Below, one piece after another: positions 11,182-50,909 of a stretch of DNA of 52,178 nucleotides. The notes beneath the pieces are model-generated. The model had not been told where the DNA came from, ran no database searches, and saw only the letters and a program-made list of their open reading frames with translations. This stretch comes from a virus. Its lineage: Duplodnaviria > Caudoviricetes. A program made the position numbers and the translations under genes. Within the stretch, counting starts at the first letter, position 1, and every line of letters starts with the position of its first letter. The stretch lies in IMG/VR virus record IMGVR_UViG_3300014168_000005, positions 1 to 52,178 of that record; one strand, written 5' to 3'.

Positions 11182-11220
11182 GAAATTGCTCCTATTCAAA
11201 ATGTCGTTGGGCCACGCAGG

Positions 11221-15314: not shown

Positions 15315-15323
15315 GCTGGGTTA

Positions 15324-16931: not shown

Positions 16932-17609
16932 TCAGATCTTGAGGACGACGGCGTAGCCGCCCTCTTTCCAATTGGCGAATCCGGAGGCCAGAAATGCGGT
17001 CATGTCGACGACACGCGAGTCAGGGACTACCGGCAGCGAGTCCAGGGTCACTCCGGGCAGCGGCCCAATGATGTTGGCGCCCGCGGCGTTGGTGACCTGG
17101 AGGTTGACGGTGTCCCAGTACACAGACTGGACCAACTGAGCCGAGGCGAGCCATGCCGCCACGGCCCCTTGGGCTGCCTGAACGGGGATGCGGGCACCGG
17201 ATCCCGAGCGGTAGAAATTGATCGCGCCACCAGCCAGCGCAACGGGGACCCGACCTTGCGCCGTCTGGATCATGGCGGTCGCCTGGTTCAGGACCGAGAA
17301 CCCGGTAAAGCTGCCGGCGGCGCCTGCGTTGATATTCGCAGCCGGTGTCAGAATTGAGCCGAGGCCGGCCGCGGGCGGGGGGTTGCTGCCGAGGGGGCCA
17401 CCGGTTCCGACCGCCTTCCGCTCGTTGATGGCCTGGCCGCCAAACATGACCTGGGTCGCGGTCGGGTCGAGAATTCCCTTGCGCAACAACGTGCGAATGG
17501 CCGAATCATCTAGCGCATCGCCCTGGACGTAGCCGCCAGATGAGACGGCAAAGGTGTTTGCGAAGTTCGTCTGTAGAGCGGGATTCAGCGTGACGGCTGC
17601 AGCAACCAT
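16932..17609 (-). CDS. Head decoration/cement protein
   Basis: GGAG RBS before ATG at 17609; GYVQGDALDD and NFYRSGSGARIPV motifs; directly before the capsid gene. Confidence 0.65.
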   Translation of the reverse strand: MVAAAVTLNPALQTNFANTFAVSSGGYVQGDALDDSAIRTLLRKGILDPTATQVMFGGQAINERKAVGTGGPLGSNPPPAAGLGSILTPAANINAGAAGSFTGFSVLNQATAMIQTAQGRVPVALAGGAINFYRSGSGARIPVQAAQGAVAAWLASAQLVQSVYWDTVNLQVTNAAGANIIGPLPGVTLDSLPVVPDSRVVDMTAFLASGFANWKEGGYAVVLKI

Positions 17610-18594: not shown

Positions 18595-19770
18595 CTAGAG
18601 TCGATCCGCGAGTCTCATCAACTCACGCATCTTCAGTTCGTGGAGTATCAAATCGAGGGCATCGTCTTCGCTGTCGGCACGGGCGTCGATCGAATCAACT
18701 CCCGATGCGTCGTTGCCTTTGTCCCATACACCGTACGGACAGACGGCAATGTGATCGAGCAGGACCGGCTTGTTTTCGATCAGCAGTTTCGAACCGTCCT
18801 CCATCTGGACTTGTTCGACATCCCTCATGCCTAAGAGGACGCCGGGCGATGTGGACATCGTCTCTTCCTCGAGCATGTCCGCGGCCAGCTCGTCATACAC
18901 CTTGGCGATACCCCAAACTTCATTGCCTTTGATGTAAGGCACGAAGTTGGTACCGATGATTCGGCGTCGAAACTCTTGCCCGTTGAGGATGGGCTTATCC
19001 TTCGGATGCTCCATGATCACTGGCAGCCCGTTGGTCCGCTCCAGAAACTCCGGTGTCAGGTACAGCGACGGATCGCGCCAGACGTACTCGTCGTGTCCCT
19101 TGCGATATGCGGCTCCGGTACCGGTTATGCGAAGCGCGATCAACAACAGGTTCTGATATCGCTGAGGGCTCGTCAGCTCCCCGTCTCGAATCGCCTTTGC
19201 GATCCCGAGTTCATCCAGTTCGAACTTCGCGAGTGCGATCGGAACTCCGGGATGCAGCGCCGACACAGCACCGAGCGCGAAACGACGGTCGACCCACTGG
19301 AAGCCATCATTCTCATCGCACAGGGTCGGGGTGAACTCTTCGTCGATCTTCGCTAGAAAAGTGGTGAAGTCGACGTTATCCGCAAGACGACGTGTCCACA
19401 ACACCAGTGGTCCCTGAACATCAACCCCAGTCTCCTCGAGGAACTCGCGCCGCGCGGCTTCTTCTGGAGTCTCGCCCTCCTCGATTCGCCCCCCGGGCGG
19501 AGCCCACCCCTGGCCGTCCGTGCGATGGGCGAGCAGAACGTGGCCAGTGGCGGCGAAGCAAAGGATGCCCGCAGCGCGAGTGACGGGTGGGGACTCGCCG
19601 AGCACGATCGCGAGCTGCTCGGGCGAGACCGAAATATCGTCGTCGTTGTAGGACTTGCCCGCCTTCTTCAAGGCGATCGCGACGGCCTGTTTCTGCTCGT
19701 GGCCGGACCGGACCAACTCGTCAATGTTGGCGGACACAACCGCGTTGGAATCTCCGAGCTTCAGTGGCAT
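18595..19770 (-). CDS. Nudix hydrolase fused to a DUF2213-type prohead protease
   Basis: Complete Nudix box GRIEEGETPEEAARREFLEETGV; protease-like LPVIMEHP, STSPG and HIAVC..GVWD; ATG at 19770 lies 4 nt after the muF stop. Confidence 0.85.
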   Translation of the reverse strand: MPLKLGDSNAVVSANIDELVRSGHEQKQAVAIALKKAGKSYNDDDISVSPEQLAIVLGESPPVTRAAGILCFAATGHVLLAHRTDGQGWAPPGGRIEEGETPEEAARREFLEETGVDVQGPLVLWTRRLADNVDFTTFLAKIDEEFTPTLCDENDGFQWVDRRFALGAVSALHPGVPIALAKFELDELGIAKAIRDGELTSPQRYQNLLLIALRITGTGAAYRKGHDEYVWRDPSLYLTPEFLERTNGLPVIMEHPKDKPILNGQEFRRRIIGTNFVPYIKGNEVWGIAKVYDELAADMLEEETMSTSPGVLLGMRDVEQVQMEDGSKLLIENKPVLLDHIAVCPYGVWDKGNDASGVDSIDARADSEDDALDLILHELKMRELMRLADRL

Positions 19771-19774
19771 AGCT

Positions 19775-20599
19775 TCATCCAGCGGCTCGTACACGCGCGA
19801 GCTCCGCGCGTCCTTTCTCGGTCAGCATCTCCGGGGGCAGGTCTCGGAGGTTGTAGAGGTACGAATAGGTGCATCGACAAAACACCAGTTGACCGGGCGC
19901 CTCGACCTCGTCCGTGTATTGCGCGCCTGCCAACTTCATGAGTCCGTCCGTCATCGCCCAGTTGCCACGGATCACAAACACCTCGCCGTTGCGAGCTTCG
20001 TGGTCTGGGCGCGCTTGGTAACCGCCGCCTTCCCTGACATGCCTCCAGATCGCCGCGATAGCGCCACCATCGCGCGCGACGATGTCGCTGAGAGTGGAGC
20101 TGAGCTTATGCCCTTGGTCGATGACGACTCGCCGCTCTTCGAAAGGCAGTCCAGCAATGGACTTTCGGACGGTTTCGTTGACCTCCCTACGCTCCACCAC
20201 ATCGCTGCCACCTGCCGGAATCGATGTGGCCCAGCCAGCAAAGCGCTGCAACGTGCGTTCAATCGAGGCTTGGCGATTGAGCTTGATCAGGTTAGCCGAC
20301 GCCAGGATTCGCCGGTCTAGTTCGGCTCGCAGGCTCGGCTTGATGTTGGCGATCGTGAACTGACCGACGCCTTTGTGGATCCGCGCGAGCTTCCCGCTCT
20401 CCACCAAACGCTCGTACACCCGGGTCAGGTTGGTCCGCAACTCTCTCTGCAGCACCTCTTCCGGGATCAGCGAGATCCGAGCCGCGGCTCTGAGTTCAAC
20501 CAACCAGCGGTCGAGGCGCTCCTGACTATCGAATCCATTCTCGGTGAGATCGGCGATGGCCGCGGTCAGCACCTGATAGAAGGACTTCGCGACAGGCAT
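19775..20599 (-). CDS. MuF-like minor head protein
   Basis: After the portal; WRH...RPDHEARNG...PGQLVFCRC motif. Confidence 0.85.
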   Translation of the reverse strand: MPVAKSFYQVLTAAIADLTENGFDSQERLDRWLVELRAAARISLIPEEVLQRELRTNLTRVYERLVESGKLARIHKGVGQFTIANIKPSLRAELDRRILASANLIKLNRQASIERTLQRFAGWATSIPAGGSDVVERREVNETVRKSIAGLPFEERRVVIDQGHKLSSTLSDIVARDGGAIAAIWRHVREGGGYQARPDHEARNGEVFVIRGNWAMTDGLMKLAGAQYTDEVEAPGQLVFCRCTYSYLYNLRDLPPEMLTEKGRAELARVRAAG

Positions 20600-22099
20600 C
20601 TACGCGGCCAGACGCGCCAGCTTCTTCGCTGCGGGCGGCTTGGGTTCCTTCTCACCACCCTCGGCACCAGCGCTGGAGTTTGCGAGGAGTCGCTGCTCTT
20701 CCTGCCGCTCCATTTCTTCCTCCAGAAAGCCCTTCAGCGTGTCGTCGTCGAGAATCAACTCACGCTTGAACAGATCCTTGTCCTCGTTCAGAGCGTCACA
20801 AGCCCACTGAACTAGGCGCACTTTGTTGGCGACGTCTACGATAGGCAGCAGCGTCTGCATGATCGAGACGATACTGCGCAGCCGAACTTCCGCGGCCTTG
20901 ACACGCTCGCTCTCAGGCTCCTCGAGCAGCGACGGCCATGTCGCCTTGAACGCCGCGCGCCATTCGCTGAAGACATCCTCGTAGTCGCGGTGGCCGTACT
21001 GGTCCGGATACTTCTTCTGAATTCTCAAGAAGAACACCGGGTTCCAGGCGCAATACATGATGATGTTGTCGAACCATCCGTACGTCGGGTCCATCTGAGT
21101 TCGGATCGTACCCAGGTAGCGGACGATGATCTTCGCATCCTCGGTACCCTCGCCGAATCCTTCCGTGAGAGTCTCGTTCTCCAACATCACGGCCGGCATG
21201 TCAGCCGCTGTCGAGATGTTCTTGAGAATGTTGCCACGACTGTACTCGCCGGCTTCCTTCACATTCTTCATGTCCAGGCACTCAATCGAGTCGTCGGGAC
21301 CGATGGAGAGCACCTGTCCGGCACGCGCCCACTTCAGGATCGAGCGCTTGATGCCCGCCATCTTGTCCATGATGTAATCGAGGACCGATCCGGGCTGCTT
21401 TTGCTTGGCCACCAATACCGAGTTCTTCGTCGCAATCACATCATCCGCGATCATCGTCAGGATGAAGGACTTCAACGGGTACAGTGCCCGCTGGTACACA
21501 CTGCGACCCACGAAACCGAACGCACTCGAGGTGTACTCGATGTACACCGGGTGCTCGTTCATCACGACTTGGCAGCGAGAGCTGTGAAACTTCTCACCGC
21601 TCACCGTGATCTGCGACGGCTTGTTGAAGTCTGCCGCCGTCGCCACCTGGTTCATCACCAGCGATCCGGCCGTGTTCAGCGGATCCAGCACGTTGAAGAA
21701 GATGGGCAGCTTGTACAGCTGTGTCATATCCAACGGTTCGTCGGTCGGCTTGTCCTTGCAGCCCATCGCAATGGAGGCGATACCGTAGACGCGCTTTAGG
21801 CTGTGAACATTGTGGATGAGGCTATCGCACTGGCGACGCTTCCACTCCGTCTCAAACTCCTCGACGAGTTCCTTCGGCGAATCCTCACCGACGGTAATCT
21901 GCCGCGGCATGCTCTGCGCCTGCGTGATCGGCGCCTCCGCCATCTTCTGCCCCAGCGGGTGCGAGACATAGATGGTTTTGCACAACTGATACGACGGGCG
22001 CGTCCCTGGCTCGATATCTTCCGCCAGCAACAGATCCGTCAGCGTCGACCCGAGATTCGAGCCTCCGGCCGTGATCAATGTCGCGGCATCGCCTGCCAT
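20600..22099 (-). CDS. Portal protein (DUF1073-like)
   Basis: 499 aa; RVYG, FHSSR, FGFVGRSV and AADMP..L motifs; upstream of muF. Confidence 0.85.
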   Translation of the reverse strand: MAGDAATLITAGGSNLGSTLTDLLLAEDIEPGTRPSYQLCKTIYVSHPLGQKMAEAPITQAQSMPRQITVGEDSPKELVEEFETEWKRRQCDSLIHNVHSLKRVYGIASIAMGCKDKPTDEPLDMTQLYKLPIFFNVLDPLNTAGSLVMNQVATAADFNKPSQITVSGEKFHSSRCQVVMNEHPVYIEYTSSAFGFVGRSVYQRALYPLKSFILTMIADDVIATKNSVLVAKQKQPGSVLDYIMDKMAGIKRSILKWARAGQVLSIGPDDSIECLDMKNVKEAGEYSRGNILKNISTAADMPAVMLENETLTEGFGEGTEDAKIIVRYLGTIRTQMDPTYGWFDNIIMYCAWNPVFFLRIQKKYPDQYGHRDYEDVFSEWRAAFKATWPSLLEEPESERVKAAEVRLRSIVSIMQTLLPIVDVANKVRLVQWACDALNEDKDLFKRELILDDDTLKGFLEEEMERQEEQRLLANSSAGAEGGEKEPKPPAAKKLARLAA

Positions 22100-22100
22100 G

Positions 22101-24191
22101 TCAGTTCACCGTCCCCGGGGTGCGCAGCAATTCAAAGTCCGCGCTCGCATAGCTGACCTGGCCCACACCATCGGTAATCTGAAACAGGACTTGGTGCAGC
22201 TCAAAATCACGCGACAAGTTGATCATCTTGTTTTGCTGACCCGTGATCGTGATGGCATTCGACAGTTCCGGAGTCGAAATGGGTGTGGCAGGCACCAACG
22301 TGAAGCCAGTGGACTCGTCCTGGACAGAATAGTTGACCGCCGTCGGCACAAACGGATCGCCGTTCGCATTGAAGTAGCCGATGGTCACGATGCATGCCGA
22401 GCCCGCGATGAACGTAGACCGCGCCACCGGAAGACCGGTCGGGCTCAGGATCAGGATGACGGCGCGCCCGAACTGCGCCTCCGCACCCGGCGGTTTGAAC
22501 GCAGCCGCCGAATCGACGATCGCACCACCTTCCAGGGTGATGCCGGTCGAGAGATCTCCAGTCGCCTCCACATCCACCAGCGCACTGCCGGCGAGCAACA
22601 GTCCCGTCAGCAACGAGCCCATGGCCGAAGACACGACATTGGCGGCTCCAGCAAATGCAGTCGTCAGCAACGCTGCACCCGCAGCCGAGCTCACCACATT
22701 GGCGTTTCCGGCCAAATTAATGGCGGTCTGAATCTGCGCGTTGGCCTGGGTCAGGGCGACCGCGGCGCCATCCAATACGATCTGAGCGCCCAGCGCACCC
22801 GCCACCGTGCTGTTGACGGCGACTTGAGCTGCGAGCGCAATGCGCGTCGTCAGCTGCGCGACTGCCTGCGAGAGCACTTGCGCATTGCCCTGGAGAGAGG
22901 CTTGGCCGCCGGTCAATGCACCGGTAGCCGCGATGTTAGCCATCGCCGATGCATTCAGCTGAATGCCGGTGACCATGGATGCAGCCGCGTTGGCGATCGC
23001 GAGCGCATTACCGGCCAGGTGAATGCCTGTCGTCAGGCTTCCAAGCGTCGATACCGATGCGAGCGCCGCCCCGGCCATCTGAATCGCCGTGCTCAGCGTT
23101 GCCGCGGCGGCTGCCACCACATTGGTGTACGACACCATCTGCGGCGTGATCACGACGATGCCCACATTCCATGCGGTGCCATCGAAGAACTGGACGACGA
23201 AAGAACAGTCGTTCGAGGTCGAACTGATCTCGCCGTTCGCGTAGACCGTCGCCTTCGACGCATCGTAGTAGAGCGTCGTCCCGACCGGCGGATCGACTCC
23301 GGTCCAGAAATTGGGATCGTGAATGCCGCCCGGGCCAGTGTACTGTGTGCCGGTCAGCGTAACCGTGGACCAATTCGTCAGTGCGCTGGAGGCGGCAACG
23401 CCTGCATTGGCGCTCCCGAGCATCCTGATCGCAGTGGCCAATGACGCCGCAGCATTGGCGGCGACCGCTCCCTGGCCCGCTAGAGCCGCACCCGACGCGG
23501 TCTTCAGCAGAATCGTGATGCTCTGCGAGTTGGCGCTGGTGTCGGTGTTGGTTAGCGCGGCCGAGTCGGCATCCGTTGCTGCCGCGGCCGACTGCTGGTC
23601 CCACCAGAATCCGGCAGCGATTGCATTGCCATTCGGAACGTAAGCCGGCGTGATCTGCGAATAGACCCCGTTGTCGACCAACCAGTCGTTGAACGACGAC
23701 CCGTTGTTGGTCGGGCTCTTGACGCAGTGGCCACAACGGATGGCCATGCAGTTGGGCACGCTGGGCGCCGATGTGGCATTGACCGAGATCCGGCCCGTCG
23801 AATTCGTGCCGCGGTCATTGAAGGCGGCCACGATCGTTGACAGATCAGTGTAGACGTTGCCGCCGAAGCCGAAGATTCGCGCGTACGCCTGGGTCGTACC
23901 GTCCCATTGGAAGGTGACCGACGCCGGATCGGTTCCATCCGCCTTCGTGACGTAGGCATACAAACACACGCACGGTGCGTTCGTGTTGACATTCAGCTTC
24001 GTAAAGCCAAGCGCAGCCAGCGCGGAATCCGGAGGCGACACCGAAATGCTGTTGCAACCGGTGTGCAGGAGCAGCAGCCGCTTGACACCATCGTTGAGGC
24101 CCGACGGCAGCGGTACCGTCATGTTGCCGCCGGCAAGCGCGGGCGTGTAACCGGAACCGCCCGCGGCGAAGAACGTGTACTGCGAGCTCAC
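22101..24191 (-). CDS. Large Ala/Gly-repeat fibre scaffold protein
   Basis: 696 aa: N-terminal beta-domain, ~13 copies of a 20-aa repeat, C-terminal Ig-like domain. Confidence 0.65.
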   Translation of the reverse strand: MSSQYTFFAAGGSGYTPALAGGNMTVPLPSGLNDGVKRLLLLHTGCNSISVSPPDSALAALGFTKLNVNTNAPCVCLYAYVTKADGTDPASVTFQWDGTTQAYARIFGFGGNVYTDLSTIVAAFNDRGTNSTGRISVNATSAPSVPNCMAIRCGHCVKSPTNNGSSFNDWLVDNGVYSQITPAYVPNGNAIAAGFWWDQQSAAAATDADSAALTNTDTSANSQSITILLKTASGAALAGQGAVAANAAASLATAIRMLGSANAGVAASSALTNWSTVTLTGTQYTGPGGIHDPNFWTGVDPPVGTTLYYDASKATVYANGEISSTSNDCSFVVQFFDGTAWNVGIVVITPQMVSYTNVVAAAAATLSTAIQMAGAALASVSTLGSLTTGIHLAGNALAIANAAASMVTGIQLNASAMANIAATGALTGGQASLQGNAQVLSQAVAQLTTRIALAAQVAVNSTVAGALGAQIVLDGAAVALTQANAQIQTAINLAGNANVVSSAAGAALLTTAFAGAANVVSSAMGSLLTGLLLAGSALVDVEATGDLSTGITLEGGAIVDSAAAFKPPGAEAQFGRAVILILSPTGLPVARSTFIAGSACIVTIGYFNANGDPFVPTAVNYSVQDESTGFTLVPATPISTPELSNAITITGQQNKMINLSRDFELHQVLFQITDGVGQVSYASADFELLRTPGTVN

Positions 24192-24400
24192 GCCGCGGAC
24201 TCAGCCATCGCGCGTAGGCGAGTCATCCGACGATGGTGGGCGCGACCAATGGCATGCGCGGTATCGCGATCGATACTGCACTTTTGGCACCGATCGCTGC
24301 AGCCGTCATCGCCAAAGTGATGGTCACACTCAATGGAGCGTTGGGTGATCGCCAGCCATTCCTCGTGATGGCACGGCGGCAGCGAGGCCTCGTCACTCAT
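24188..24400 (-). CDS. Small Cys/His-rich protein (70 aa)
   Basis: ATGA and GTGA overlaps with both neighbours; MSDEASLPPCHHEEW...CDHHFGDDGCSDRCQKC. Confidence 0.5.
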   Translation of the reverse strand: MSDEASLPPCHHEEWLAITQRSIECDHHFGDDGCSDRCQKCSIDRDTAHAIGRAHHRRMTRLRAMAESAA

Positions 24401-26187
24401 GAGTAGTTGGTCGGATACGCCCCATTGGGCGGATTGGCCTTGAGGACGGCAAACGCCTGAGTCCAGCGCCGATCTGCTGGCACATACGTCGCACTGTCTG
24501 GAATGAAGGTCAGCAACACGTGCGATGCCCCGTAGTCGAGGTTGTAGGAATCGGCTAGATCCTGTGGCGTAAACCCATTCGAGCCGCCCATCGAACACGT
24601 CGCCGTCACAGTCGCGGCTGAGCCGAGACCACCACTCCAGGTGAGCGTCTTTCCGTCAGTGACCGTGCAAGACCGAATCGTTCCGTTTGAGAATCGAATC
24701 GAGTAACCGACGCCGTTGGGCCACTTTCCGTTGTTGAACGAAGGCGAGATCTGAGCGCTCGTCGCGCCGGCGGCAGGAGCCGATGCGAGCGTGAACGTGA
24801 ACGATCCGCCCGCGATTCCACCGAAGGCGCCCAGATCCGGAGCTTGAATTTCGGTCAGAAACCGAACACCGGCGGCTTTCCAGTTGGTCAGTGTCGCTGT
24901 TGATCCCGTTGCTCGTTGTGCAACGTATGCCTGCTGCCCCCAACCGAACAACGTCCCGGAAGGCGAGTTCCGATACGTAATGTACATGTGCCCATACAGA
25001 TCCGTCTGGCCCGGAGTCGCCTGGCTCTGAACGATGGTCGTCTCGAGATCCTGGCAAGGCGTCGACGTCTGCATGAACGTGTTTTCGTAGAAACAGTTCG
25101 CCGTCGTCAACGCTGCCACGGTTGCCTGCATCAACGATGTCTGCGTGACCGTGGAGGCCGAATCCGTGTATCCCGAGCCGGTTGACCCGTTCGCAGAGTT
25201 CGCACCGATCCAGAAGGAGTTCTCGCCGTAAACGATGCCCTCAAACAGAGGCTTGCTATTCGCCCACGTCGCGACCTGCTGGACACATTTGATCAGGCGA
25301 GCCATCACGCTCGTACGATGCAGTTGGGCTGCGTACGTGTTGCCGTTGCCGTCCCCGCCTGACCAGCCTGAGACACCCGCGGGCTGCGTAATGACCGAGA
25401 ACGTGACGGTCGTCGAAGTCTGGGCAGCGGTTAGGCCGCCAGACCAGGAGATAGCCGTTGACCCCTTTGTGGCGGTGACCGTCTTCGTCTCACCATCACC
25501 AAACTTGAAGGTGTACGACCCGCTGTTGGCCTGCCACGAGCTCGACAACGTCGCGCTGGTCGCACCCGCTGCCGGAGCTGCGGTCATCGACGCACTCGTG
25601 ATCCGCCATCCCGCCTGTCCGTACGTTGAGACGCTCTGCTGGAGATACAGCGGAAGGATCGAGTCGTCGTTCGTGCCCGGATGCGTCGATGTAAAGGCGC
25701 CGACCTCGATGATGATCATCATCCGCTTGCCGCTGGGGCTCAGCGTGTTGTAGATCTCATCGAGAATCGCAGTGTTGTACGTATCCTGCGAGGGTTCTAG
25801 GCAACTCCACGTAATGAAAGCGCAGTGACCGACGCAGCCGTTCGTTGAAATCGCCGTCGACAGCTCGCTGGCGATTCGCGATGCCGCAGTCTGGCCTTTG
25901 AAGATGACCGTGTTCGAATCCATGTAGATACCTGGATTCCAAACGCGAGTGGCGCCGCCACCTCCGCCGGACAGAGTTGCTGCAACGGCGGAGGCCACCG
26001 AGCCGCCACCACTCAGCTTTACTTTCGTCGTGAGCGATGCCGAGGCATTGACGCCGACCGCCGCGGCTCCACCGTCTCCCGATGGCTTGTCGCCATTGGG
26101 ATACCGACCCCAGTAGAGGCCGTCAAAGCTGGTCTTGAATATCGAGATCTCGACCTGGGAAGCAACGGGCGGGCGACCGATCGTCAT
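24397..26187 (-). CDS. Glycoside-hydrolase-like TIM barrel (GH-A-like) with two inserted duplicated beta-domains
   Basis: WNPGIY and TWSCLEPSQDTYN; candidate catalytic Glu in GEN and TEIQ. Confidence 0.6.
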   Translation of the reverse strand: MTIGRPPVASQVEISIFKTSFDGLYWGRYPNGDKPSGDGGAAAVGVNASASLTTKVKLSGGGSVASAVAATLSGGGGGATRVWNPGIYMDSNTVIFKGQTAASRIASELSTAISTNGCVGHCAFITWSCLEPSQDTYNTAILDEIYNTLSPSGKRMMIIIEVGAFTSTHPGTNDDSILPLYLQQSVSTYGQAGWRITSASMTAAPAAGATSATLSSSWQANSGSYTFKFGDGETKTVTATKGSTAISWSGGLTAAQTSTTVTFSVITQPAGVSGWSGGDGNGNTYAAQLHRTSVMARLIKCVQQVATWANSKPLFEGIVYGENSFWIGANSANGSTGSGYTDSASTVTQTSLMQATVAALTTANCFYENTFMQTSTPCQDLETTIVQSQATPGQTDLYGHMYITYRNSPSGTLFGWGQQAYVAQRATGSTATLTNWKAAGVRFLTEIQAPDLGAFGGIAGGSFTFTLASAPAAGATSAQISPSFNNGKWPNGVGYSIRFSNGTIRSCTVTDGKTLTWSGGLGSAATVTATCSMGGSNGFTPQDLADSYNLDYGASHVLLTFIPDSATYVPADRRWTQAFAVLKANPPNGAYPTNYS

Positions 26188-26211
26188 GGCCGCCCCACTA
26201 GTCCGCGGCGC

Positions 26212-27402
26212 TCACTGTGTCGTCACACCGTAATTGCGGACGTAGATGGTCGTCGGATTCGCGGGATTGTGATCCCACTGGTGTCCGTCCTTGTACCAGT
26301 TGTAACGCTCAAAGAAGATCGTCTGGCTGGAGATGCTGGTCGAGGACGTGAGCCCCGAGCCGGCAATGGGCCAGGTTCCAATTCCCTTCGGCGGCGCCGC
26401 AGTACCGCTTCCCTGCGCGTTTCCGTTGTTGGTGTACCACCCGCCCGTGGGAATGTTCGCTCCGGTGATCCAACCCGCATTGTCGATGTAGTTCGAACCC
26501 GCGCAGGCGGTTACGGTCAGAGTGCCGGTACCGGTTCCGGTCCCCGCAATCGACCCGGTGCATGTTTTCTTTCCGCTGGAAGTGATGTGGAGATCCTCGA
26601 GCGGGATCTTGCACGACACCCATTGGCCGACGACCGGCGTGCAGTAGCTGAAGAGTTCCGGCTGATAAGAGTTCTGCAATAGCGAGAACGCATCACCCGG
26701 CGGAATGCGGGAAGTGACGCCAACGCCCAATCCATTGGTCGTGTACTCGGTGCTCGTAACATAGATATCGAGGACGAGATAGTTGAAAGCTCCGATCTCG
26801 CCATCATTCGGGAACCCGTTCTGGCCCGGCGCCAGGGGTGGCCCGACACCAGGCTGTACACCGCCGCCGCCCGGCCAGGTCCAGAGCATGACCGGCTGTC
26901 CACCGCCGGCGGGATCGGTGGCATTGAAATTGATCGTTGCGCCGCTGTACGAAAGATCGGATCCCGTGGTGTTGGACCCATTCTTGTACATCCACATCGA
27001 CGGTGTGGCCGCCGCGCTTTCGTTCGTCCCATCCGTCGCTTTGACGGTGTAGGCGTACACGGTCGCCACCTGGGTGACGCCTGAGGGATTCGAATTGGTG
27101 GCGGTGGAGTCGGTGTAACTGGTGGACGACGTGTTGGCGAGGAACGTCCCGTTCCGATAGACGTTGTAGCCACCGGTGGCGCCCGCGCTCGCCGTCCAGG
27201 TGAGCATCTGCGAATTGGTGATGGGCGCCGTCGAATTGCTGGTACCCGCCTGCTGTGCGATCTGCAGGTTGGTGACTGGCGCAAGCGATCCGCCTCCGCC
27301 ACTGGAAGCGGCGGCACCGCGAGCATGGCGAGCAAAGTCTGCCTGCGGAAACAGGCTGACGATCAGCAGCAGTACGAGCGCTTTGGAAAAGAATGACTTC
27401 AT
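26212..27402 (-). CDS. Secreted FN3 plus carbohydrate-binding-like protein
   Basis: Signal peptide MKSFFSKALVLLLIVSLFPQADFA; FN3 motifs LTWTAS, GYNVYRNG and YAYTVKATD; CBM-like WVSCKIPLEDL. Confidence 0.7.
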   Translation of the reverse strand: MKSFFSKALVLLLIVSLFPQADFARHARGAAASSGGGGSLAPVTNLQIAQQAGTSNSTAPITNSQMLTWTASAGATGGYNVYRNGTFLANTSSTSYTDSTATNSNPSGVTQVATVYAYTVKATDGTNESAAATPSMWMYKNGSNTTGSDLSYSGATINFNATDPAGGGQPVMLWTWPGGGGVQPGVGPPLAPGQNGFPNDGEIGAFNYLVLDIYVTSTEYTTNGLGVGVTSRIPPGDAFSLLQNSYQPELFSYCTPVVGQWVSCKIPLEDLHITSSGKKTCTGSIAGTGTGTGTLTVTACAGSNYIDNAGWITGANIPTGGWYTNNGNAQGSGTAAPPKGIGTWPIAGSGLTSSTSISSQTIFFERYNWYKDGHQWDHNPANPTTIYVRNYGVTTQ

Positions 27403-27408
27403 GGACGT

Positions 27409-28080
27409 TTACTGAAGCGCGGCTGCCTGAAGGGAGATGTTGCCGGTACCGGTCGTCAGCGTGAAAACGACGGTCAGTGTCTGGCTCGCTGATCCGGCCG
27501 CGTAGGTGATCGTGACTACGCCATCGGAAAAGCCACTGCCGTTCACCAGCCCGTTGTAATCGACCGCCGTTGCGGACCCATCACTCAAACTCGCATGCAC
27601 ATTGGTCGCGGAGCAGTTGAAGACCCCCAAATAGAGCTTCAGCGTGCGTGTCGTAGTGCCCGCGGGCGCGGTGATCGTGAATGTGCCGGAGGCGTTCGAC
27701 TGGTAGATGCCGTTCTGATTCGAGGCGCTCGCCGTCGGCGTTCCATCGCTCCAGGTGATCGTCCGGCTGTCGTTGGTGTAGTTACCGAGGTTGCCGGTAA
27801 AGGCACCGGTGATATTGCCACCCCCGGTTTTGTGATCGCCAGGCGAGGCACCGGTGGTCGCCGTGCCCCAAGCCGCCCAGTCGACCGAGCCGACCGAGGT
27901 GATGTTGACAGTCGTCCCATCAATTGCGCCCGCGATCGAGAGCGAGGCGCCCGCTGACGACGACGTCTTGAGCAGTCCTCCGCTACCCGCAACCGGACCA
28001 GCTGATCCGACAACGAGCTGAGCGTGCGCCGTTGCCGCGAGCACCAGCAGCAACAGACTCGCAAAGACCTTGCGCATCAT
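27409..28080 (-). CDS. Secreted beta-sandwich protein
   Basis: Signal peptide MMRKVFASLLLLVLAATAHA-Q; Thr/Ser/Gly-rich beta pattern. Confidence 0.7.
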   Translation of the reverse strand: MMRKVFASLLLLVLAATAHAQLVVGSAGPVAGSGGLLKTSSSAGASLSIAGAIDGTTVNITSVGSVDWAAWGTATTGASPGDHKTGGGNITGAFTGNLGNYTNDSRTITWSDGTPTASASNQNGIYQSNASGTFTITAPAGTTTRTLKLYLGVFNCSATNVHASLSDGSATAVDYNGLVNGSGFSDGVVTITYAAGSASQTLTVVFTLTTGTGNISLQAAALQ

Positions 28081-29939
28081 TTATAGCCAGTGCAATTGAA
28101 ACTGACCACATCGTTGGCATTGACGGTACCGGCCATGGTCGCGGTTGTCGTCGCGTGCCCACTCTGCCTCAGGGTATTGGCCGTGGTCTCGTCGCTGAAC
28201 GAGCACGACCAGCCGTGGCCCGCTGTCGGCAGATTGACAATCTGCGTCGAGGCGCCGGTGGTGCCGGTACAGGTAAACGCACCGGCAGCGGTGCCTCCTG
28301 TCAGCGTGCTCGTCGTGGCGCAGGCGCCAGTTCCCGTGCCGAGCGTGAACGTGGTGCCGGCATCGATCAGGTAGCTGACGGTCGTCGCGGCAATCAGCTG
28401 GTTTGAGCTGTTTGAGCCCAACACGGAGGCACTCGTAGGAACAGCAGCGCCGTTGACCTTTCCAACCGTGGTGGCGAGGCTGCCGGCAGTGTTGGTGACA
28501 TCGCCAGTGAGCGCCGGCATGGCTGCTGTCGGGAGGGTCGTGGCGCCTGAGACCGCCGTGCCGCTGCTCGAATAGACGGCGACCTGGTTGGTCGTGCCGG
28601 AGTTGACCGTACCGGATCCGCTGCCCGATACCAGCGCCGTACCGGTGGCCACATAGTTGCCGCTGGCGGCCGTAATATTGGCGCTTCGAGACCCAGCAAC
28701 CGACAACGTCGATCCACTGTTGATCGTGCTCGTCGTCGGCGTGACGGTGACAGTGCCGGTTCCGGCCGCGATCACATCCACATTGCAAGCAGCAAAACTG
28801 CTCGTCGCTTGCGGAAGGGTAACCGCCACGGCACTGGAGCTCGTGTACTGGACACCGTTCGCGCAGTCGCTCGACAGGATCGTGTCGGTCGTGCCCGAGA
28901 CAGTCCGTATGCTGTAGCTCGCACCCAGACCCGAACTCGTCAGCGAAAGACCGCCCAGGATCGGGATCGCAGCATTCCCGCTACCGCTGTTGCCGAGCAA
29001 GTCACCGCTGGTGATTGTCGAGAGACCGCTCAGCGGGAGGCCGGTGGCGTTGGTCAGCGTCAACGCGCTCGGTGTACCCAACGCCGGCGTAACCAGGGTC
29101 GGCGAGGTTGCCAGCACATTGCTACCGGAGCCCGTTGTCGTCGCGCTGATGAGCTGGCCCGACGAGTTCGAGCCGAGCACTGCAGCACTCACCGGTACCG
29201 AGCCACCGTTGACGCCGGTCGTATTGGTGGCCGCGATGGTGCCACTGCCGGTGACCGTCAGGCTGGCGCCGGTTCCAACGACCATGGCAGCCGCCGTGTT
29301 CGTGCCACCCGTGAGCGCACTGAAGGCAGAACTGCCGCCGCCGGCGCCGCAGTCTGAACCGGTCCCGGACAGAATGCCTGCGCTGTTCGCGTGGACGCAC
29401 TGTGTTGAGCCAGTGATGTTGCTGGTCAGCGCACCACTGAGCGACAGGGACGTGGCTGAAGCAGCTCCCAGAGTCGGCGCGACCAGCGTGGGCGCCGAGG
29501 CTAGCACGACACTACCGGTGCCGGTGGTGGTCGCACTGATGAGTTGATTCGAAGAGTTCGAACCGAGGACCGCAGCACTCGTCGGCACGGAGATGTTCGT
29601 GCAGGTGACGAGCGTTGCGGCGCCACTCAGGCAGTGGCTGGCGTCGGACGTACCCGAAAAAAGTCCAATGACATCAGCCGCGGCTGCCGTAGTCAGCGCG
29701 TTCGGAACACTTCCGGCGCCCTTGAGCAGGCCGGTGGCACCGAACATGCCGTAGAGCTGCGCCTCGTTGGCGTTGACCTTGCCATACGCCTTCCACAGTG
29801 GGTCGCCAGTCCCCGTGTTTGTGGGACCGGTCGTGGAATTACAGGCCGTGCTCGAAGAGCAGAGGATAGATTGCTGCTGGGCCCATGCGCCGATCGGCGC
29901 TGCGAGCAACACCGCGGCGAGGACGAGCTTTTTGATCAT
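28077..29939 (-). CDS. Fibre protein with a signal peptide and internal repeats
   Basis: MIKKLVLAAVLLAAPIGAWA-QQ; TGTGDPLWKAYGKVNANEAQLY; three VPxSAxVLGSNSSxQLI repeats; 12 Cys. Confidence 0.75.
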   Translation of the reverse strand: MIKKLVLAAVLLAAPIGAWAQQQSILCSSSTACNSTTGPTNTGTGDPLWKAYGKVNANEAQLYGMFGATGLLKGAGSVPNALTTAAAADVIGLFSGTSDASHCLSGAATLVTCTNISVPTSAAVLGSNSSNQLISATTTGTGSVVLASAPTLVAPTLGAASATSLSLSGALTSNITGSTQCVHANSAGILSGTGSDCGAGGGSSAFSALTGGTNTAAAMVVGTGASLTVTGSGTIAATNTTGVNGGSVPVSAAVLGSNSSGQLISATTTGSGSNVLATSPTLVTPALGTPSALTLTNATGLPLSGLSTITSGDLLGNSGSGNAAIPILGGLSLTSSGLGASYSIRTVSGTTDTILSSDCANGVQYTSSSAVAVTLPQATSSFAACNVDVIAAGTGTVTVTPTTSTINSGSTLSVAGSRSANITAASGNYVATGTALVSGSGSGTVNSGTTNQVAVYSSSGTAVSGATTLPTAAMPALTGDVTNTAGSLATTVGKVNGAAVPTSASVLGSNSSNQLIAATTVSYLIDAGTTFTLGTGTGACATTSTLTGGTAAGAFTCTGTTGASTQIVNLPTAGHGWSCSFSDETTANTLRQSGHATTTATMAGTVNANDVVSFNCTGYK

Positions 29940-29942
29940 GGC

Positions 29943-30317
29943 TTATGAGGGCCTGTTGCCTTGAGGATAGTTGGGCCAATACAGCCCGTCGGGACTCTTC
30001 TTCTGCACGGAAAAGAACACTTTGGAGGGGCGGTACGGTTTCGCCTGGCCTATCGAGCCCGTGGCCGAGCTGTCGATCTGACCGATACCGGCCAGGCCCG
30101 AAGGCGTTCCGCCATCCGCCGTGACGAGGCCGCTATCGGCGGTCAGAGATCCCGAGTCAGCGGTAAATGCATTGCCGGCATCGGCGGTGACCAATCCACT
30201 GTCGGCTGTAACCGTCCCGCTATCTGCGGTGACTGTCGCAATCGGGTTACCGGAGTCGGCAGTCTGGGGAGCACTGTCGGCAGTGATCGATCCGCTGTCA
30301 GCGCTGGTGCCGGCCAC
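29943..30317 (-). CDS. TADSG-repeat adaptor-like protein
   Basis: Nine (T/S)AD repeats in three triplets; C-terminal DGLYW motif. Confidence 0.65.
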   Translation of the reverse strand: MAGTSADSGSITADSAPQTADSGNPIATVTADSGTVTADSGLVTADAGNAFTADSGSLTADSGLVTADGGTPSGLAGIGQIDSSATGSIGQAKPYRPSKVFFSVQKKSPDGLYWPNYPQGNRPS

Positions 30318-30340
30318 GAAGCGTCATTGCCCGCCAGGGC

Positions 30341-30565
30341 TCACGTGCCCTGATTGGCCCGAGCCGCATCCACGGCTGCCTGTGCCTGCTCGATCGAGAC
30401 ATCCAGGTCAGACAGAGCCAACTGCGTGAGGTCGACGACGTCGCTGCCTGACTTGCCCGCATTCTTCGCTACGGCCGCGTAGTTGGTAAACGCAGCGCCG
30501 AGCGCTTCGAGCTGATCAACTGTCAGCGGCGCGGTGGGATCTTTGCTCACAGGTGATGGAGGCAC
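30341..30565 (-). CDS. Small Ala-rich helical protein
   Basis: 74-aa ORF overlapping the upstream gene end. Confidence 0.5.
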   Translation of the reverse strand: MPPSPVSKDPTAPLTVDQLEALGAAFTNYAAVAKNAGKSGSDVVDLTQLALSDLDVSIEQAQAAVDAARANQGT

Positions 30566-31152
30566 TTGAGGATCTCCTGGTCGTTGAGGTTGAGGCAGGC
30601 TTTGACGCTCTCGGCTTTCGCCTGATCGGCGGTTGCCTGTGCTGTGGCCGTGTCACCGGTGCATTTGCCGGTGTGGCCGTTCTGAGCGCATTCCGCGTTG
30701 GCCTCCTTGACGAGGTCTCGAACCTTCACGGCCCCGTTGATCATCGTCTGCGCCTCGTCCGGAGTGAGCGTCCCGTCGTGAAGCATCTGCGGGATGTGCT
30801 TCAGCGATGCCGCAGCGAGCGTCGCAAGCGGTGCTGTACCCCATTCGAACGAGCCGAACGTGGACAGGGTACCGATGGCGATGACCTCGGCTTTTGCGTT
30901 ACCGGCCAGGGTCACCGCGTCATACTCGCGCGAGATCGGCTGCACCTTGCGGGGAGGCGTCGGCTTCGAGCAGCCACTGCACAGCGCGACACCGACGAGA
31001 ATCGACAGACCCACGAGTACGAAGCCGAAGTTCAGCATCCTCGCTCTGAGGCCGGTGTACCGCTCCGCTGCCCAGATGCCGAACAACGCTGCCAGCATTA
31101 GCAAGACCAAAACCACCGGCACATACCATGGCTGTTGGATGAGTAGATTCAT
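30547..31152 (-). CDS. Membrane protein / putative lipoprotein
   Basis: Two hydrophobic segments then a lipobox-like VALCSGC; GGAG RBS. Confidence 0.6.
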   Translation of the reverse strand: MNLLIQQPWYVPVVLVLLMLAALFGIWAAERYTGLRARMLNFGFVLVGLSILVGVALCSGCSKPTPPRKVQPISREYDAVTLAGNAKAEVIAIGTLSTFGSFEWGTAPLATLAAASLKHIPQMLHDGTLTPDEAQTMINGAVKVRDLVKEANAECAQNGHTGKCTGDTATAQATADQAKAESVKACLNLNDQEILKCLHHL

Positions 31153-31173
31153 GGCGTGCTCCGTTGAGACGGG

Positions 31174-31872
31174 TTAGGCGGTGACGGCTTCAGTGGACTC
31201 GGTCTGTTCGCCGAGCTCGCGGACGTACCGGTTCCAGTCGGGCTGACCGTTGTCGCCGATTGTGATCGTCAGGGCACCGGCGGCAAAAGAAGGCGCGCTA
31301 TCTCCGGAATTTACGGTTTTCGGGGTTGTGAGGGGTGCGTAGATGAGCTCGTTGCCGCCCGAACTCGAATCGTACAAACAAAACCCGGTGATCGAGCCCC
31401 AAGTGGCAGTAGGTGCCGCGTAGGTGATCGCGTTGTTGTTGGAGGTGGTGCCCGATGAGCCGGTCGCGTTGCTCGATGCGGCTGTCGTGCCTGCACCCTG
31501 CGTGCCAGCCCAGTTAGCGAGGGAACTCGTAATACCTGGCCGCACATACGACCCACCAGACACCTCGCCACTACAACTCTGTGCGTTGATCGTGCCGGTA
31601 TAGAGGCCAACGTAGACCGTGCCTGGCGTCAGTGCGGTCTGAGCGCGAAACGTGGCGTCAATTACTTTGTTTTGGAAGTAATTGCTGGTCGCGGCGGCTT
31701 CAGCCTCAGGCGCGACTGCATTCAACAGATTGGTAGCGAGGTTGTGTTCGGCTGTCTGCGCAACCGTCAGGTGTTGCGTATGCACGCCGTGAAGATCCGA
31801 CTGCGGCGTAACGGATGCGAGCATCACCAAGGCGGCAAGCAATGCCAGCCCAAATCGCTTGAACGACTTCAT
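31174..31872 (-). CDS. Small phage fibre-coat-like beta protein with a signal peptide
   Basis: GAGGA RBS before ATG at 31872; MKSFKRFGLALLAALVMLA; mature part YVGLYT...EVSGGSYVR...WGSITGF.LYDSSSGGN.L...FAAGALTI, a pattern recalled from phage virion proteins. Confidence 0.65.
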   Translation of the reverse strand: MKSFKRFGLALLAALVMLASVTPQSDLHGVHTQHLTVAQTAEHNLATNLLNAVAPEAEAAATSNYFQNKVIDATFRAQTALTPGTVYVGLYTGTINAQSCSGEVSGGSYVRPGITSSLANWAGTQGAGTTAASSNATGSSGTTSNNNAITYAAPTATWGSITGFCLYDSSSGGNELIYAPLTTPKTVNSGDSAPSFAAGALTITIGDNGQPDWNRYVRELGEQTESTEAVTA

Positions 31873-32120: not shown

Positions 32121-33710
32121 TCAGAAACCGTCGGAATTACCGAGGGCGAGCGCGGTGCCATAAGTGAAGGTGTCCAGAAGATCGTCTTTCTTCTGGTCCT
32201 TGATACCTGGCCGAAAACTCAGGATCTGCGAGAGCAGATGGTTTTTCGTCACGCTCTTGTAGTTGACGACGCGGCTGTGAGCACGCTCCGACATTTTGAC
32301 CTTGCCCTGGTGGACGTGGCCGCTGATGTTGAGAGCGCGCTCGACCTTTCCCATGGCCGTGAGCTTCGAATCAATCGCCGTCGCCACCCAGTTGGGATGG
32401 GCAGTCACCCAATCCTGGTGTTGCGTCTGCTGCAACAGAACGGTGCCAGAAACCTTGTCCTCGATGTGCGCGCCGGCGCTGCCCATGTAAGCACGACACT
32501 CGGCCGCCAGCGCTTCGAGGTATTGGTACACGTTCGGCAGCCAGGTCACCAGCATGCCACCCTCAATCTGGGTGTAATCCCAGTCGAGGATCGTCAACTC
32601 GGCCGCCGTGCCCATCTTGCAGATGGCGAAGTAAGTGACCGCGAGCCCGTCGTGCTCCTGGCCGGTCTTCAGTGCTGAGTCGATGACGGCAAACACCGCC
32701 TGAATGCCCATCGTCGGGAACTCTGCAGGCCTGCCTTCGACGAGCAGCGATTCCTCAGTGAAGAACGCGCCGCCCTTGCTGTAGTCAACATCGTACTCGC
32801 GGCGGAAGATCTCGGGCGCGACTTCTGCCCGCTTCTTCTTTTCCCACTCTGCATCACGCCGCGGATCATCGCGGAAGTGGAAGGTGAAGACCTGCCGCGG
32901 GTTCAACCGCTCGCGGTTGTTGACAAAAGTGTTGTCGTCGACCACCACGGGTGGCGTCGAGATGTCGATACGACAGTTAGTCGTGTCCGACAACGACGAT
33001 TCCGCTAGCTCGGGATGCTCGAGGAAAGCGGCCTCGTCAACGAAGTACAACGACGTCCTATCGCCGCGGCCGATGCCATCACCGGATTCGCCGGTCATGG
33101 CGGAGTCCTGAGGAAACAGCAGCCGCATCTCGCGGGAGTGCTTCTTCAGGTTCCAGCCGAATCGAAACTCCGGCGGCAGGTTCTCGAGGAACATGCGCGC
33201 CTTGAAGAACAACGCCTTCGGGTTGCCGAGTTCGTCGACGTACGGTGCCGTTCGCGAGCCGAAGCCCACCGTGAGCCCACGGTTGAACAAACACATCGTC
33301 GCTGACAGCGACACTGCCATCCAAGACGCGCCGGATCCGCGTGACTTGTCCGTCAGCCCGCGCTCACGCGCCCGCCAGCGCGCCAGCACCCACCGCATCC
33401 ACGCGATCTGCCGCGGAAACGGCACAAACGGAATCTTGGACGGTAGCCGGATCTCGACGTTGCGGGGGTCAAAGGTGACACCCCAATCGGCTACGAATTG
33501 GACTGGATTGTCCTGGTAGAACCGGCACAGATCATCCACGGCCCCCGGCTTCTTGCGGATGCGGAGCAGGAAGTCGACCCGCCACTTCGCAACAGCAACA
33601 TAGTCGGGCTGGCGATAGTTGAATTCGTACGGGATACGGACCGGGAGGTCCGCCTCATACGGAATCGCCGCCGCCAGCTCGTCACGGATTGTTTGCGGCT
33701 CTGCGGCCAC
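32121..33710 (-). CDS. terL: Terminase large subunit
   Basis: Q-motif PFPRQ, Walker A KSRGSGAS, Walker B YFVDEAA, coupling motif IST, nuclease motifs IDSA and DDLLD. Confidence 0.9.
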   Translation of the reverse strand: MAAEPQTIRDELAAAIPYEADLPVRIPYEFNYRQPDYVAVAKWRVDFLLRIRKKPGAVDDLCRFYQDNPVQFVADWGVTFDPRNVEIRLPSKIPFVPFPRQIAWMRWVLARWRARERGLTDKSRGSGASWMAVSLSATMCLFNRGLTVGFGSRTAPYVDELGNPKALFFKARMFLENLPPEFRFGWNLKKHSREMRLLFPQDSAMTGESGDGIGRGDRTSLYFVDEAAFLEHPELAESSLSDTTNCRIDISTPPVVVDDNTFVNNRERLNPRQVFTFHFRDDPRRDAEWEKKKRAEVAPEIFRREYDVDYSKGGAFFTEESLLVEGRPAEFPTMGIQAVFAVIDSALKTGQEHDGLAVTYFAICKMGTAAELTILDWDYTQIEGGMLVTWLPNVYQYLEALAAECRAYMGSAGAHIEDKVSGTVLLQQTQHQDWVTAHPNWVATAIDSKLTAMGKVERALNISGHVHQGKVKMSERAHSRVVNYKSVTKNHLLSQILSFRPGIKDQKKDDLLDTFTYGTALALGNSDGF

Positions 33711-33716: not shown

Positions 33717-34298
33717 TCAGCCCTTCTTCTCGGGCTCTCCGGCGACGAGCTCACTGTACGTCGCCATGGCATCGTTGGGATCGATCGTCTGAGCCAGCTT
33801 CTCGCTGGCCCGGTGCGCGTGCTCCACCGGCCCACCGCCAGGCGCCGACAGGGTATGCGCGTGCTGTTCGACGAACAGCTTATGATGCTTGCCGAGCAGC
33901 TCCGCCGCCTTCAGGGCATTTTTTGCATCGAAGGTGTACGCGGGGACGATCTTCGTTTTGCCGTCGGGGCCCTCGACTTCGATCTCCACCTGGCGACCGA
34001 ATCGGTCAATCACAGGCTCGGCCTGGCGGCACCGTCGGAGCGTGTCCCAGATCACGTCCAGCACCTCGGCTGCTGTGCCACCCGCGACCTTGATGGCCAG
34101 CCGCTCGCGCTCCGCAATCGCTTGTGCGACTTTGGGCTTACGTCGTAGCTTGCCGCCGGCGAGATCCGGGCGTTTGCCCGTATAGCCGGCCTTCTGGATG
34201 GCCTTTGTGGCGATGCCGGTTTCTATCCAAGCATCGACAAACATCTTGTGCCGCCAGTTGAGGCGGTCGTAAACGGGGGTTTCAGAGAACGACGGCAT
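33717..34298 (-). CDS. terS: Terminase small subunit
   Basis: ATKAIQKAGY HTH; ALKAAELLGKHHKLF; upstream of terL. Confidence 0.85.
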   Translation of the reverse strand: MPSFSETPVYDRLNWRHKMFVDAWIETGIATKAIQKAGYTGKRPDLAGGKLRRKPKVAQAIAERERLAIKVAGGTAAEVLDVIWDTLRRCRQAEPVIDRFGRQVEIEVEGPDGKTKIVPAYTFDAKNALKAAELLGKHHKLFVEQHAHTLSAPGGGPVEHAHRASEKLAQTIDPNDAMATYSELVAGEPEKKG

Positions 34299-50792: not shown

Positions 50793-50909
50793 ATGAGTTC
50801 GGAACCGCTAAACCCGGCACTAAGGGAACTCATTCGCATCCTCGCAAAGGCAGCGATGCGACCAAAGTTGCCGCCGGCCCCGCCTCCGGCCGAGAATCCC
50901 CGCCCATGA
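50793..50909 (+). CDS. Small peptide coupled to the integrase (candidate directionality factor)
   Basis: MSSEPLNPALRELIRILAKAAMRPK...; ATGA overlap with the integrase start. Confidence 0.4.
   Translation: MSSEPLNPALRELIRILAKAAMRPKLPPAPPPAENPRP

Follow-up and report, generated by a model that had tools for sequence, protein, structure and literature searches.

A Gp80-family bead with an apparent export signal and signal-less candidate rope proteins between terL and portal of a temperate myovirus: a possible fibre assembly across two compartments

The 52,178-bp IMG/VR contig IMGVR_UViG_3300014168_000005, rated 100% complete by CheckV and called the window here in its full length, carries ten minus-strand open reading frames (ORFs), A to J, that occupy positions 22101-31872 between terL and the portal gene, the same ten that an earlier note on this DNA had counted. 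We read this cassette as a lineage-conserved accessory-fibre block of a temperate soil myovirus, built on the rope-and-bead principle of the GP4 fibre I, the Bas63 whiskers and the A1002 chain fibres. The rope-and-bead block itself is already known, and the new part is the export signal, which the bead and the putative glycan binders appear to carry and the candidate ropes do not. In the literature covered, outside which most subscription journals lie, we found no description of Sec-signal-bearing, Cys-paired fibre subunits with a dedicated lipoprotein in tailed virions. The interpretation that we tentatively place first is that the beads and the glycan binders mature in the periplasm and dock on the ropes of the virion at lysis. 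The earlier note had offered two options, subunits that mature in the periplasm and dock on cytoplasmic scaffolds at or after lysis, or a phage-derived surface fibre or adhesin secreted by the lysogen; the former is our leading reading and the latter its main rival. The cassette consists of the following genes.

A, 31174-31872, minus strand: 232-aa Gp80-family fibre/whisker subunit (the 'bead'), PF23140.
B, 30547-31152, minus strand: lipoprotein-like protein of an uncharacterised family.
C, 30341-30565, minus strand: 74-aa protein without signal, third member of the conserved A-B-C trio.
D, 29943-30317, minus strand: 124-aa protein without signal, ending 3 nt before E.
E, 28077-29939, minus strand: 620-aa fibre-repeat protein with a predicted Sec signal at residues 1-20 (29880-29939).
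F, 27409-28080, minus strand: 223-aa protein with a predicted Sec signal at residues 1-20 that ends A-H-A before Q, and 1 Cys.
G, 26212-27402, minus strand: 396-aa protein with a predicted Sec signal at residues 1-~24, an FN3 domain, a beta-sandwich like that of carbohydrate-binding modules (CBMs), and 4 Cys.
H, 24397-26187, minus strand: 596-aa protein without signal, with an anchor motif, about two rope-like repeats and a GH42-like TIM-barrel domain.
J, 24188-24400, minus strand: 70-aa Cys/His-rich protein that fills the gap between H and I exactly.
I, 22101-24191, minus strand: 696-aa protein without signal, the candidate rope.

By sequence, A is a member of the Gp80 family. It matches PF23140 ('Podophage GP4 fiber I protein gp80') over residues 62-204 with 118 bits (cut-off 27, E 4e-34) and the PDB chain 8jou_a over residues 60-202 with E 1.1e-11, or E 2.8e-21 when the family profile is used. 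As far as the available portions of the structural accounts go, in GP4, VP1, A1002 and Bas63 the Gp80 fold builds whiskers or chain-like fibres along a 'rope', to which its dimers attach by beta-sheet augmentation (PMC13730344, PMC12609058). The puzzle that the earlier note had raised, of exported subunits beside signal-less scaffolds in a virion module, was well put; its statement that no described system could be recognised falls with the assignment of A to this family. In A, an apparent signal (residues 1-~22, 31807-31872) and a linker of ~35 aa precede the Gp80 domain (residues 60-204, 31261-31695), and a Cys pair is formed by C100 and C165. This N-terminal extension of ~59 aa with its signal-like segment has no counterpart in GP4 gp80 or in the homologues of ACP17, phiM5 and C72C1, all of which begin at the domain; according to its annotation, the phiM5 homologue has been detected among the proteins of the particle.

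The homologues of A fall into classes in which export signal, cysteines and lipoprotein go together. Among the best 120 of the 2492 homologues of A, 97 have a signal-like N-terminus, and the 23 without one comprise 20 short proteins of ~146 aa and three two-domain proteins. The signal typically ends in a small-residue site directly before a conserved AA-S-Y-ENK start, which is where the short homologues and GP4 gp80 begin, the short class starting with Met-Ala-Ala at the conserved domain as GP4 gp80 does. Since the end of the signal adjoins the start of the short class, cleavage would give an identical mature N-terminus. Of the 97 signal-bearing proteins, 91 have a Cys in each of the two alignment columns of C100 and C165; the 23 signal-less ones have a Cys in neither column, and no protein has just one of the two. 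The six signal-bearing proteins that lack these two Cys have two or three elsewhere instead. A sample of 80 viral loci with a Gp80 homologue (L numbers below) contains 14 signal-bearing and 66 signal-less loci, the status of L066 (signal-less) and L096 (signal-bearing) having been set by inspection, against the heuristic. A lipoprotein gene of the B family follows the Gp80 gene in 11/14 of the signal-bearing loci and 0/66 of the signal-less ones, and had no match in the other loci scanned. The window has a single PF23140 match (A, here at 117.6 bits), as does each of five related records, of which three are rated 100% complete. That sole copy is signal-less in the record of L066 and signal-bearing in the other four (two complete), so the ropes of those four have no other bead.

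The calling of signals rests on a heuristic for n-, h- and c-regions, on conservation in homologues and on gene packing. The heuristic picks out E, F and G, as well as A if the ATG at 31872 is taken as its start; these are the four ORFs for which the earlier note had listed Sec signal peptides. Signal-like starts are therefore present in four of the nine cassette ORFs scanned, J being under the length cut-off, and in 0/54 of the remaining ORFs of the window (a Fisher test on E, F and G, the three flagged automatically, gives p=0.002). The cleavage sites of E (A-W-A) and F (A-H-A) are those of textbook Sec signals; A and G satisfy the n- and h-region criteria with weaker cleavage sites. The starts of E, F and G are supported by the packing of the genes, which leaves a gap of 3 nt between D and E, an ATGA overlap between E and F and a gap of 6 nt between F and G, and the ATG of A is preceded, at a distance of 7 nt, by a GAGGA box. 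Cys counts are 2 in A, 12 in E and 4 in G, even in three of the four signal bearers as had been noted earlier, with 1 in F and 6 in B. D, H and I have no signal-like N-terminus, which agrees with what the earlier note had said of its TADSG protein, glycosidase-like protein and Ala-repeat scaffold, respectively. It had also proposed a check for signals in homologues, and signal-like N-termini recur in 97/120 homologues of A, in 5/5 homologues of E and in a G-like protein of L005. We infer from these features that A, E, F and G are exported.

A different explanation would be that the hydrophobic N-termini are not export signals at all, and reflect mis-called starts or uncleaved assembly or membrane tethers that stay in the cytoplasm. 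It draws on the heuristic nature of the signal calls, on an alternative upstream TTG for A at 31917 together with the long linker before the conserved domain, and on the sub-optimal cleavage sites of A and G. We consider it highly improbable, because the starts of E, F and G are fixed by the junctions, the GAGGA box precedes the ATG of A, the signal-like N-termini are repeated across the homologues of A and E with small residues at -3/-1, and the Cys pair and the lipoprotein co-vary with the signal.

Protein B appears to be a lipoprotein, as had been suggested for one ORF of the cassette from the sequence. Its longer ORF adds a 38-residue N-terminal hydrophobic segment (31039-31152) with its own GGAG box that the homologues do not have; read from the internal Met at 31038, B has a signal and lipobox like those of the homologues. 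The lipobox is non-canonical (L-C-S-G-C), and a Cys-containing lipobox (LSSC, LSGC, LAGC, LASC or similar) is present in 7/8 aligned homologues, with a plain signal reported for those of L036 and L085. The B profile was made from B and eight homologues, and the nine-row alignment shows a conserved ATLA..GSFEW motif and a C-terminal Cys pair in 6/9. With jackhmmer, relatives of C turned up in 7 loci whose Gp80 bears a signal, located at the B gene or immediately after it, and the A-B-C trio follows terL in the lineage of the window (L033, L035, L079) and other head genes in L036 and L064. None of B, C, D, E, F and J could be placed in a family by searches of Pfam, PHROGs and PADLOC. A spanin pair was considered for B and C and rejected: C has no hydrophobic segment, and B follows the signal-bearing Gp80 gene and not the lysis genes; a genuine spanin pair is seen, by contrast, in L066. 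In L079, a 205-aa Cys-rich ORF (11193-11810) with a weak Stc1-domain match (E 4.5e-4) lies between the A-like and B-like genes, and a separate 65-aa hydrophobic ORF follows terL.

The strict tie of the lipoprotein to the signal-bearing Gp80 genes also suits an alternative in which the exported proteins never join the particle: A with B, and E, F and G, would have their place in the envelope or be released to bind glycans in free form. In this way they might mask or occupy the receptor glycans of the phage itself, giving superinfection exclusion and keeping progeny off debris, or serve the lysogen as adhesins, and the virion ropes would work beadless. We place this alternative, the main rival, only a little behind docking at lysis. 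Genes for lipoproteins or outer-membrane proteins lie beside the receptor-binding genes of T5 (llp) and lambdoid phages (cor). Lambda lom, which encodes a signal peptide and lies between tail genes, is a further precedent in the part of the source available (PMC12309495). A point against the alternative is that cleavage at the predicted site would typically leave the exported class with the N-terminus of the virion class.

Protein I is most probably a Gp80-type rope, the identity that we give to the 'Ala-repeat scaffold' of the earlier note. It consists of a beta domain (residues 1-233), one repeat (244-267), a conserved beta domain (273-350), ten 20-aa repeats (357-566, positions 22494-23123) and an Ig-like domain (570-693), and thus contains eleven 20-residue units. 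The BLOSUM autocorrelation of I is 0.83 at lag 20 and 0.95 at lag 40, with a maximum of 0.42 in 500 shuffles. A motif scan found rope-repeat ORFs in 27/80 Gp80 loci and 0/24 control loci, always on the same strand and 0.4-5 kb downstream of the Gp80 gene, and it is for this reason that I is read as a rope; the strict pattern of the scan stays below threshold on the window's own I. Matches to I were obtained by tblastn in 21/80 Gp80 loci, and the rope repeats are conserved in 21 homologues of I. No I-like ORF starts with a signal, including those of six loci with a signal-bearing Gp80. This conservation of the repeats, although the only bead is predicted to be exported, counts against exported proteins that never meet the particle.

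An AlphaFold2 (AF2) model of I made with 21 homologues has confident beta domains at residues 1-233, 273-350 and 570-693, and repeats with pLDDT <50, which would be compatible with repeats that might become ordered only on a partner. The end domains resemble viral proteins, among them mycobacteriophage minor tail proteins (BFVD matches). A Foldseek search of the PDB with the model returned generic Ig folds only, with the Bas63 connector chain 9mt4_H at rank 36; no PDB chain matched the sequence of the whole of I or of its repeat region, and similarity to solved collar or adaptor proteins was not detectable. The small ORF J joins H and I through an ATGA overlap with the stop of H and a GTGA overlap with the start of I, and had no relatives among the loci searched.

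The lack of similarity of I to solved collar or adaptor proteins leaves room for a structure separate from the virion. Once released by lysis, I, H and D would join the periplasmic proteins A, E, F and G to make free fibres or a coat on nearby cells, by the same compartment logic as in our favoured interpretation. A precedent is given by the tail-fibre-like proteins PblA and PblB of phage SM1, which end up on streptococcal surfaces. Three observations make this unlikely: the I gene ends 1 nt from the portal start, the end domains of I have the viral resemblances described above, and the Gp80 fold is virion-bound in every solved case in the accounts as available (PMC13730344, PMC12609058).

E, F and G follow D in the cassette. 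The predicted signal of E ends A-W-A before QQQ, and the protein has a Cys-rich C-terminal tip domain. A signal or a lipobox, with small residues at -3/-1, is present in all five homologues closest to its N-terminus, three of which lie on contigs equal in length to contigs with homologues of A and I. Of the viral loci examined, 11/14 contain E-like ORFs that start in a signal-like way, and in L005 E-like ORFs stand in other slots of the same structural module. A tblastn search of INPHARED with E gave two short repeat matches only. The sole Pfam match of F is sub-threshold (Big_2, E 0.024). The AF2 model of G (pLDDT 83, pTM 0.82) is matched by Foldseek to the CBM11 structure 1v0a and the CBM8 structure 7t7y at TMt 0.63 (E 8e-4 to 7e-3) and also to the SGBP-B structure 7k44, and G is therefore, as judged from a model, probably a glycan binder and not an enzyme.

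The G domain can stand behind two different kinds of N-terminus. In L035 and L079 it lies behind rope repeats and an anchor motif, without a signal, and in the window and L005 it lies behind a signal instead; the swap falls at one and the same Gly-rich linker, and the D protein of the window ends immediately behind the anchor motif. An exchange between rope-anchored and exported forms would be unexpected if the exported proteins worked solely in the envelope. On the other side, the G-domain family is common in bacteria as secreted proteins and lipoproteins, with 16/60 full-domain matches flagged as secreted by the heuristic and several more having LAACGG-type lipoboxes by eye, and a binding module in place of an enzyme would suit a role outside the virion.

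The anchor motif occupies the C-terminus of D (29949-30038) and opens H (26080-26163). It has ~30 residues, with the pattern S-x-D-G-x-Y-W-x-x-Y-P-x-G and rope repeats on its flanks, and a loose search found it only in the window and in L035, L036, L037 and L079, all of which have signal-bearing Gp80 genes. It corresponds to no known family, and the copy in H had no meaningful PDB match; we suspect that it is an attachment point. D also contains about nine TADSG heptads (~30114-30296) with a period of 7 by autocorrelation, and a PDB sequence search with D gave nothing meaningful. We considered D as the rope for A and dropped this candidate, as its support was the repeats of D alone and the I-type repeats fit better; a complex prediction with two copies of A (residues 57-232) and D scored 0.17, against a mark of 0.34, and is uninformative either way. 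Clusters of the GH42 N-domain are matched by the Atlas model of H (pLDDT 0.58), the TM being 0.70-0.80 by target (0.41-0.52 by query), and the match of H to Pfam GH42 (PF02449) is below the cut-off (E 0.067, 13 bits vs 21), so that H resembles a glycosidase at the level of the modelled fold only. In L007, a protein encoded at 13501-15807 with a 65-residue H-like match has a twin-arginine-like N-terminus (R-R-K-F-L) that suggests Tat export, and its neighbour is a 1520-aa E-like protein with a Sec-like start. The complete records of L035 (65 kb) and L079 (72 kb) share the order terL, A, B, C, variable genes, H-like and I-like; in L035 the portal and MuF genes come after the I-like gene, and the L079 locus ends inside I.

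Assembly across two compartments would proceed as follows. The signal-less I, H and D would be made in the cytoplasm and mounted on the particle, and the only Gp80 bead, A, and the binders E, F and G would be made as Sec preproteins. After export, signal peptidase would cleave these and their disulfides would form in the periplasm, where the lipoprotein B is the probable holder of A. Holin and endolysin would merge the compartments, and only then would A dock on the ropes by strand augmentation; the likely benefit would be the formation of disulfides in the periplasm. If ropes need beads and the only bead is exported, the two can meet only after a breach of the inner membrane, which favours docking at lysis. 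The wider proposal, that a widespread class of fibre subunits is exported, cut, disulfide-bonded, kept by a lipoprotein and threaded onto virion rope repeats at lysis, in a strand exchange like that of chaperone-usher pili, is one that we put forward as possible, and with more reserve than for this phage. Some probability must also be kept for readings other than this assembly route and the three alternatives described.

Several points weigh against assembly at lysis. The cytoplasm is regarded as the sole building site of tailed virions, and we know of no tailed phage with virion parts known to mature in the periplasm. Export is predicted from sequence features, a search for sequencing runs that cover 22101-31872 listed none, the best -3/-1 site of A is weak, and G has Asp at -3. 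The ~35 aa between the hydrophobic core of A and the start of its conserved domain are atypical for the class, although the same long linker is present in P0007, a relative 75% identical to A. The signal-bearing proteins may be one clade, in which case the correlations with Cys and lipoprotein would represent co-variation and not independent events. In all 70 INPHARED records with a match to a signal-bearing homologue, the alignment sets in only at residue 20-30 of that homologue, and none of the five homologue loci opened from cultured or complete phages has a signal-like start (the L032 ORF being read from an upstream ATG), so that no signal-bearing example from culture was found among them. 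The rope identity of I comes from synteny, periodicity and a repeat region modelled with low confidence, no docking site on the particle was recognised for E, F and G, and a dedicated lipoprotein suits a function resident in the envelope at least as well as a holding role.

The genes around the cassette place it in the structural module of the phage. The flanking and terminal features of the window are listed here.

terS, 33717-34298, minus strand: PHROG terminase match.
terL, 32121-33710, minus strand: PHROG terminase match.
Portal, 20600-22099, minus strand: phrog_146, E 1e-44.
Tail-fibre gene at the baseplate end, 1-423: without signal, cut by the left end of the window.
Serine recombinase, 50906-52177: cut by the right end of the window.

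The minus strand carries all the morphogenesis genes of the window. Besides the portal they include a MuF-like gene, a NUDIX-containing head-maturation gene, a scaffold gene and the major capsid protein gene, and matches to sheath, hub and baseplate wedge genes identify the phage as a myovirus. The serine recombinase indicates that it is temperate, which, like the presence of an ordinary signal-less tail-fibre gene, would suit exported proteins that never join the particle. The host is probably a member of the Acidobacteriota, a lead only, based on the presence of E-like genes in metagenome-assembled genomes of Terriglobales, Bryobacterales and Terracidiphilus, among others. In the cultured phages Shewanella QDWS and Yersinia vB_YenM_06.16-1, whose portals are 44-47% identical and which were the two inspected, terL abuts the portal directly; the adjacency that the earlier note had called usual holds in both, and the insert in the window is therefore real.

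The cassette lies within the late operon, with tight or overlapping junctions up to the I stop. Promoter-like sites number 1 against 3.5 expected, the one being outside the cassette, and terminator-like sites 12 against 11 expected, in scans that use the sigma-70 consensus and may not suit the host. GC and third-position GC (GC3) of the cassette are similar to those of the flanks, with no compositional break. We therefore rejected the reading of the cassette as a moron with its own promoter and terminator and deviant composition, in the manner of lambda lom and bor, since there is no excess of sites and the GC and GC3 are flank-like. The packing of the genes in a late structural operon also argues against a role confined to the envelope.

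Elsewhere in the late region, a tRNA-Leu gene (anticodon CAG, 17258-17349, plus strand) sits between the genes for scaffold and capsid, in the orientation opposite to that of the minus-strand operon. The head-maturation gene beside the MuF-like gene (18595-19794, minus strand) encodes a NUDIX hydrolase domain (phrog_1198, E 1.6e-18) that sits inside a phrog_6216 protein, which takes in the scaffold gene as well. The ORF at 11221-13188 (minus strand), flanked by a neck gene and the sheath gene, encodes a protein of 655 aa that has 11 Cys, no signal and a weak pectate-lyase-like match, and the same slot in L005 (9329-14749) is occupied by a 1806-aa E-like protein with a signal-like start; the slot looks like a second hot spot for accessory fibres. 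In the early/lysogeny region, a 219-aa ORF (43127-43786, plus strand) has a hydrophobic N-terminus ending A-H-A and several Cys, is unflagged by the strict signal heuristic and has no Pfam family.

A common class of homologues of a virion fibre thus bears an apparently cleavable export signal, a class-specific Cys pair and a lipoprotein partner of its own. This would represent either an undescribed periplasmic, post-lysis assembly step, or the repeated conversion of a virion fibre into an envelope or secreted factor. Either outcome affects the annotation of fibre and receptor-binding genes in metagenomes, the reading of the missing N-terminus of A1002 gp41, and the understanding of disulfide-stabilised, glycan-binding appendages made for soil life.

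Among the known systems, the closest in sequence is that of GP4, in which the rope is a separate protein and the collar is Ig-like (PDB 8JOU; Zheng et al. 2023, J Mol Biol), as cited in the available parts of PMC13730344 and PMC12609058. The window resembles it in that A is a sequence homologue of gp80 and a separate repeat protein, I, is encoded nearby, and the higher autocorrelation of I at lag 40 than at lag 20 suggests about five double units, to be set beside the five dimers of GP4. GP4 differs in being a podophage whose gp80 has 140 aa, starts at the domain, and has neither a signal nor Cys at the two paired columns, and we found no lipoprotein partner described for it. In the myophage Bas63 (Felixounavirus), a rope-like extension of the Ig-like neck collar bears whisker dimers, according to the portion of the account available (PMC12609058). 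Both phages are myophages, the cassette of the window adjoins the portal, and I has Ig-like end domains; the Bas63 rope, in contrast, binds two dimers and belongs to the collar protein, and the window has eleven repeats and extra domains, several rope-bearing proteins (D, H and I), and subunits that are predicted to be exported.

The A1002 rope is part of the nozzle protein gp39 and carries 11 dimers of gp40 and gp41, and the first ~33 residues of gp41 (171 aa) are absent from the virion map, for which the authors suggest proteolysis, in the part of their paper available (PMC13730344). The term 'signal peptide' has 0 occurrences in the text of that paper as available (PMC13730344). By length alone, a gp41 of 171 aa with ~33 missing fits the signal-bearing class of 168-175 aa. 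Beads are placed on a rope by beta-sheet augmentation in A1002, and the same is proposed here for A; the A1002 rope, unlike that of the window, lies within the nozzle protein of a podophage.

Lambda lom is like the window in being a signal- or lipobox-bearing gene among receptor-binding genes, and acts in the host envelope, as described in the part of the source available (PMC12309495). Lom, cor and T5 llp are single genes with no virion homologue, whereas A of the window, predicted to be exported, belongs to a virion-fibre family and is linked to candidate ropes. In chaperone-usher pili, a partner keeps the subunits competent in the periplasm, and beta-strand complementation joins them. The proposal for A, B and the rope repeats has the same elements of partner-held periplasmic subunits and strand complementation, as a mechanistic analogy only: the window has no usher, and the acceptor would be a virus particle built in the cytoplasm.

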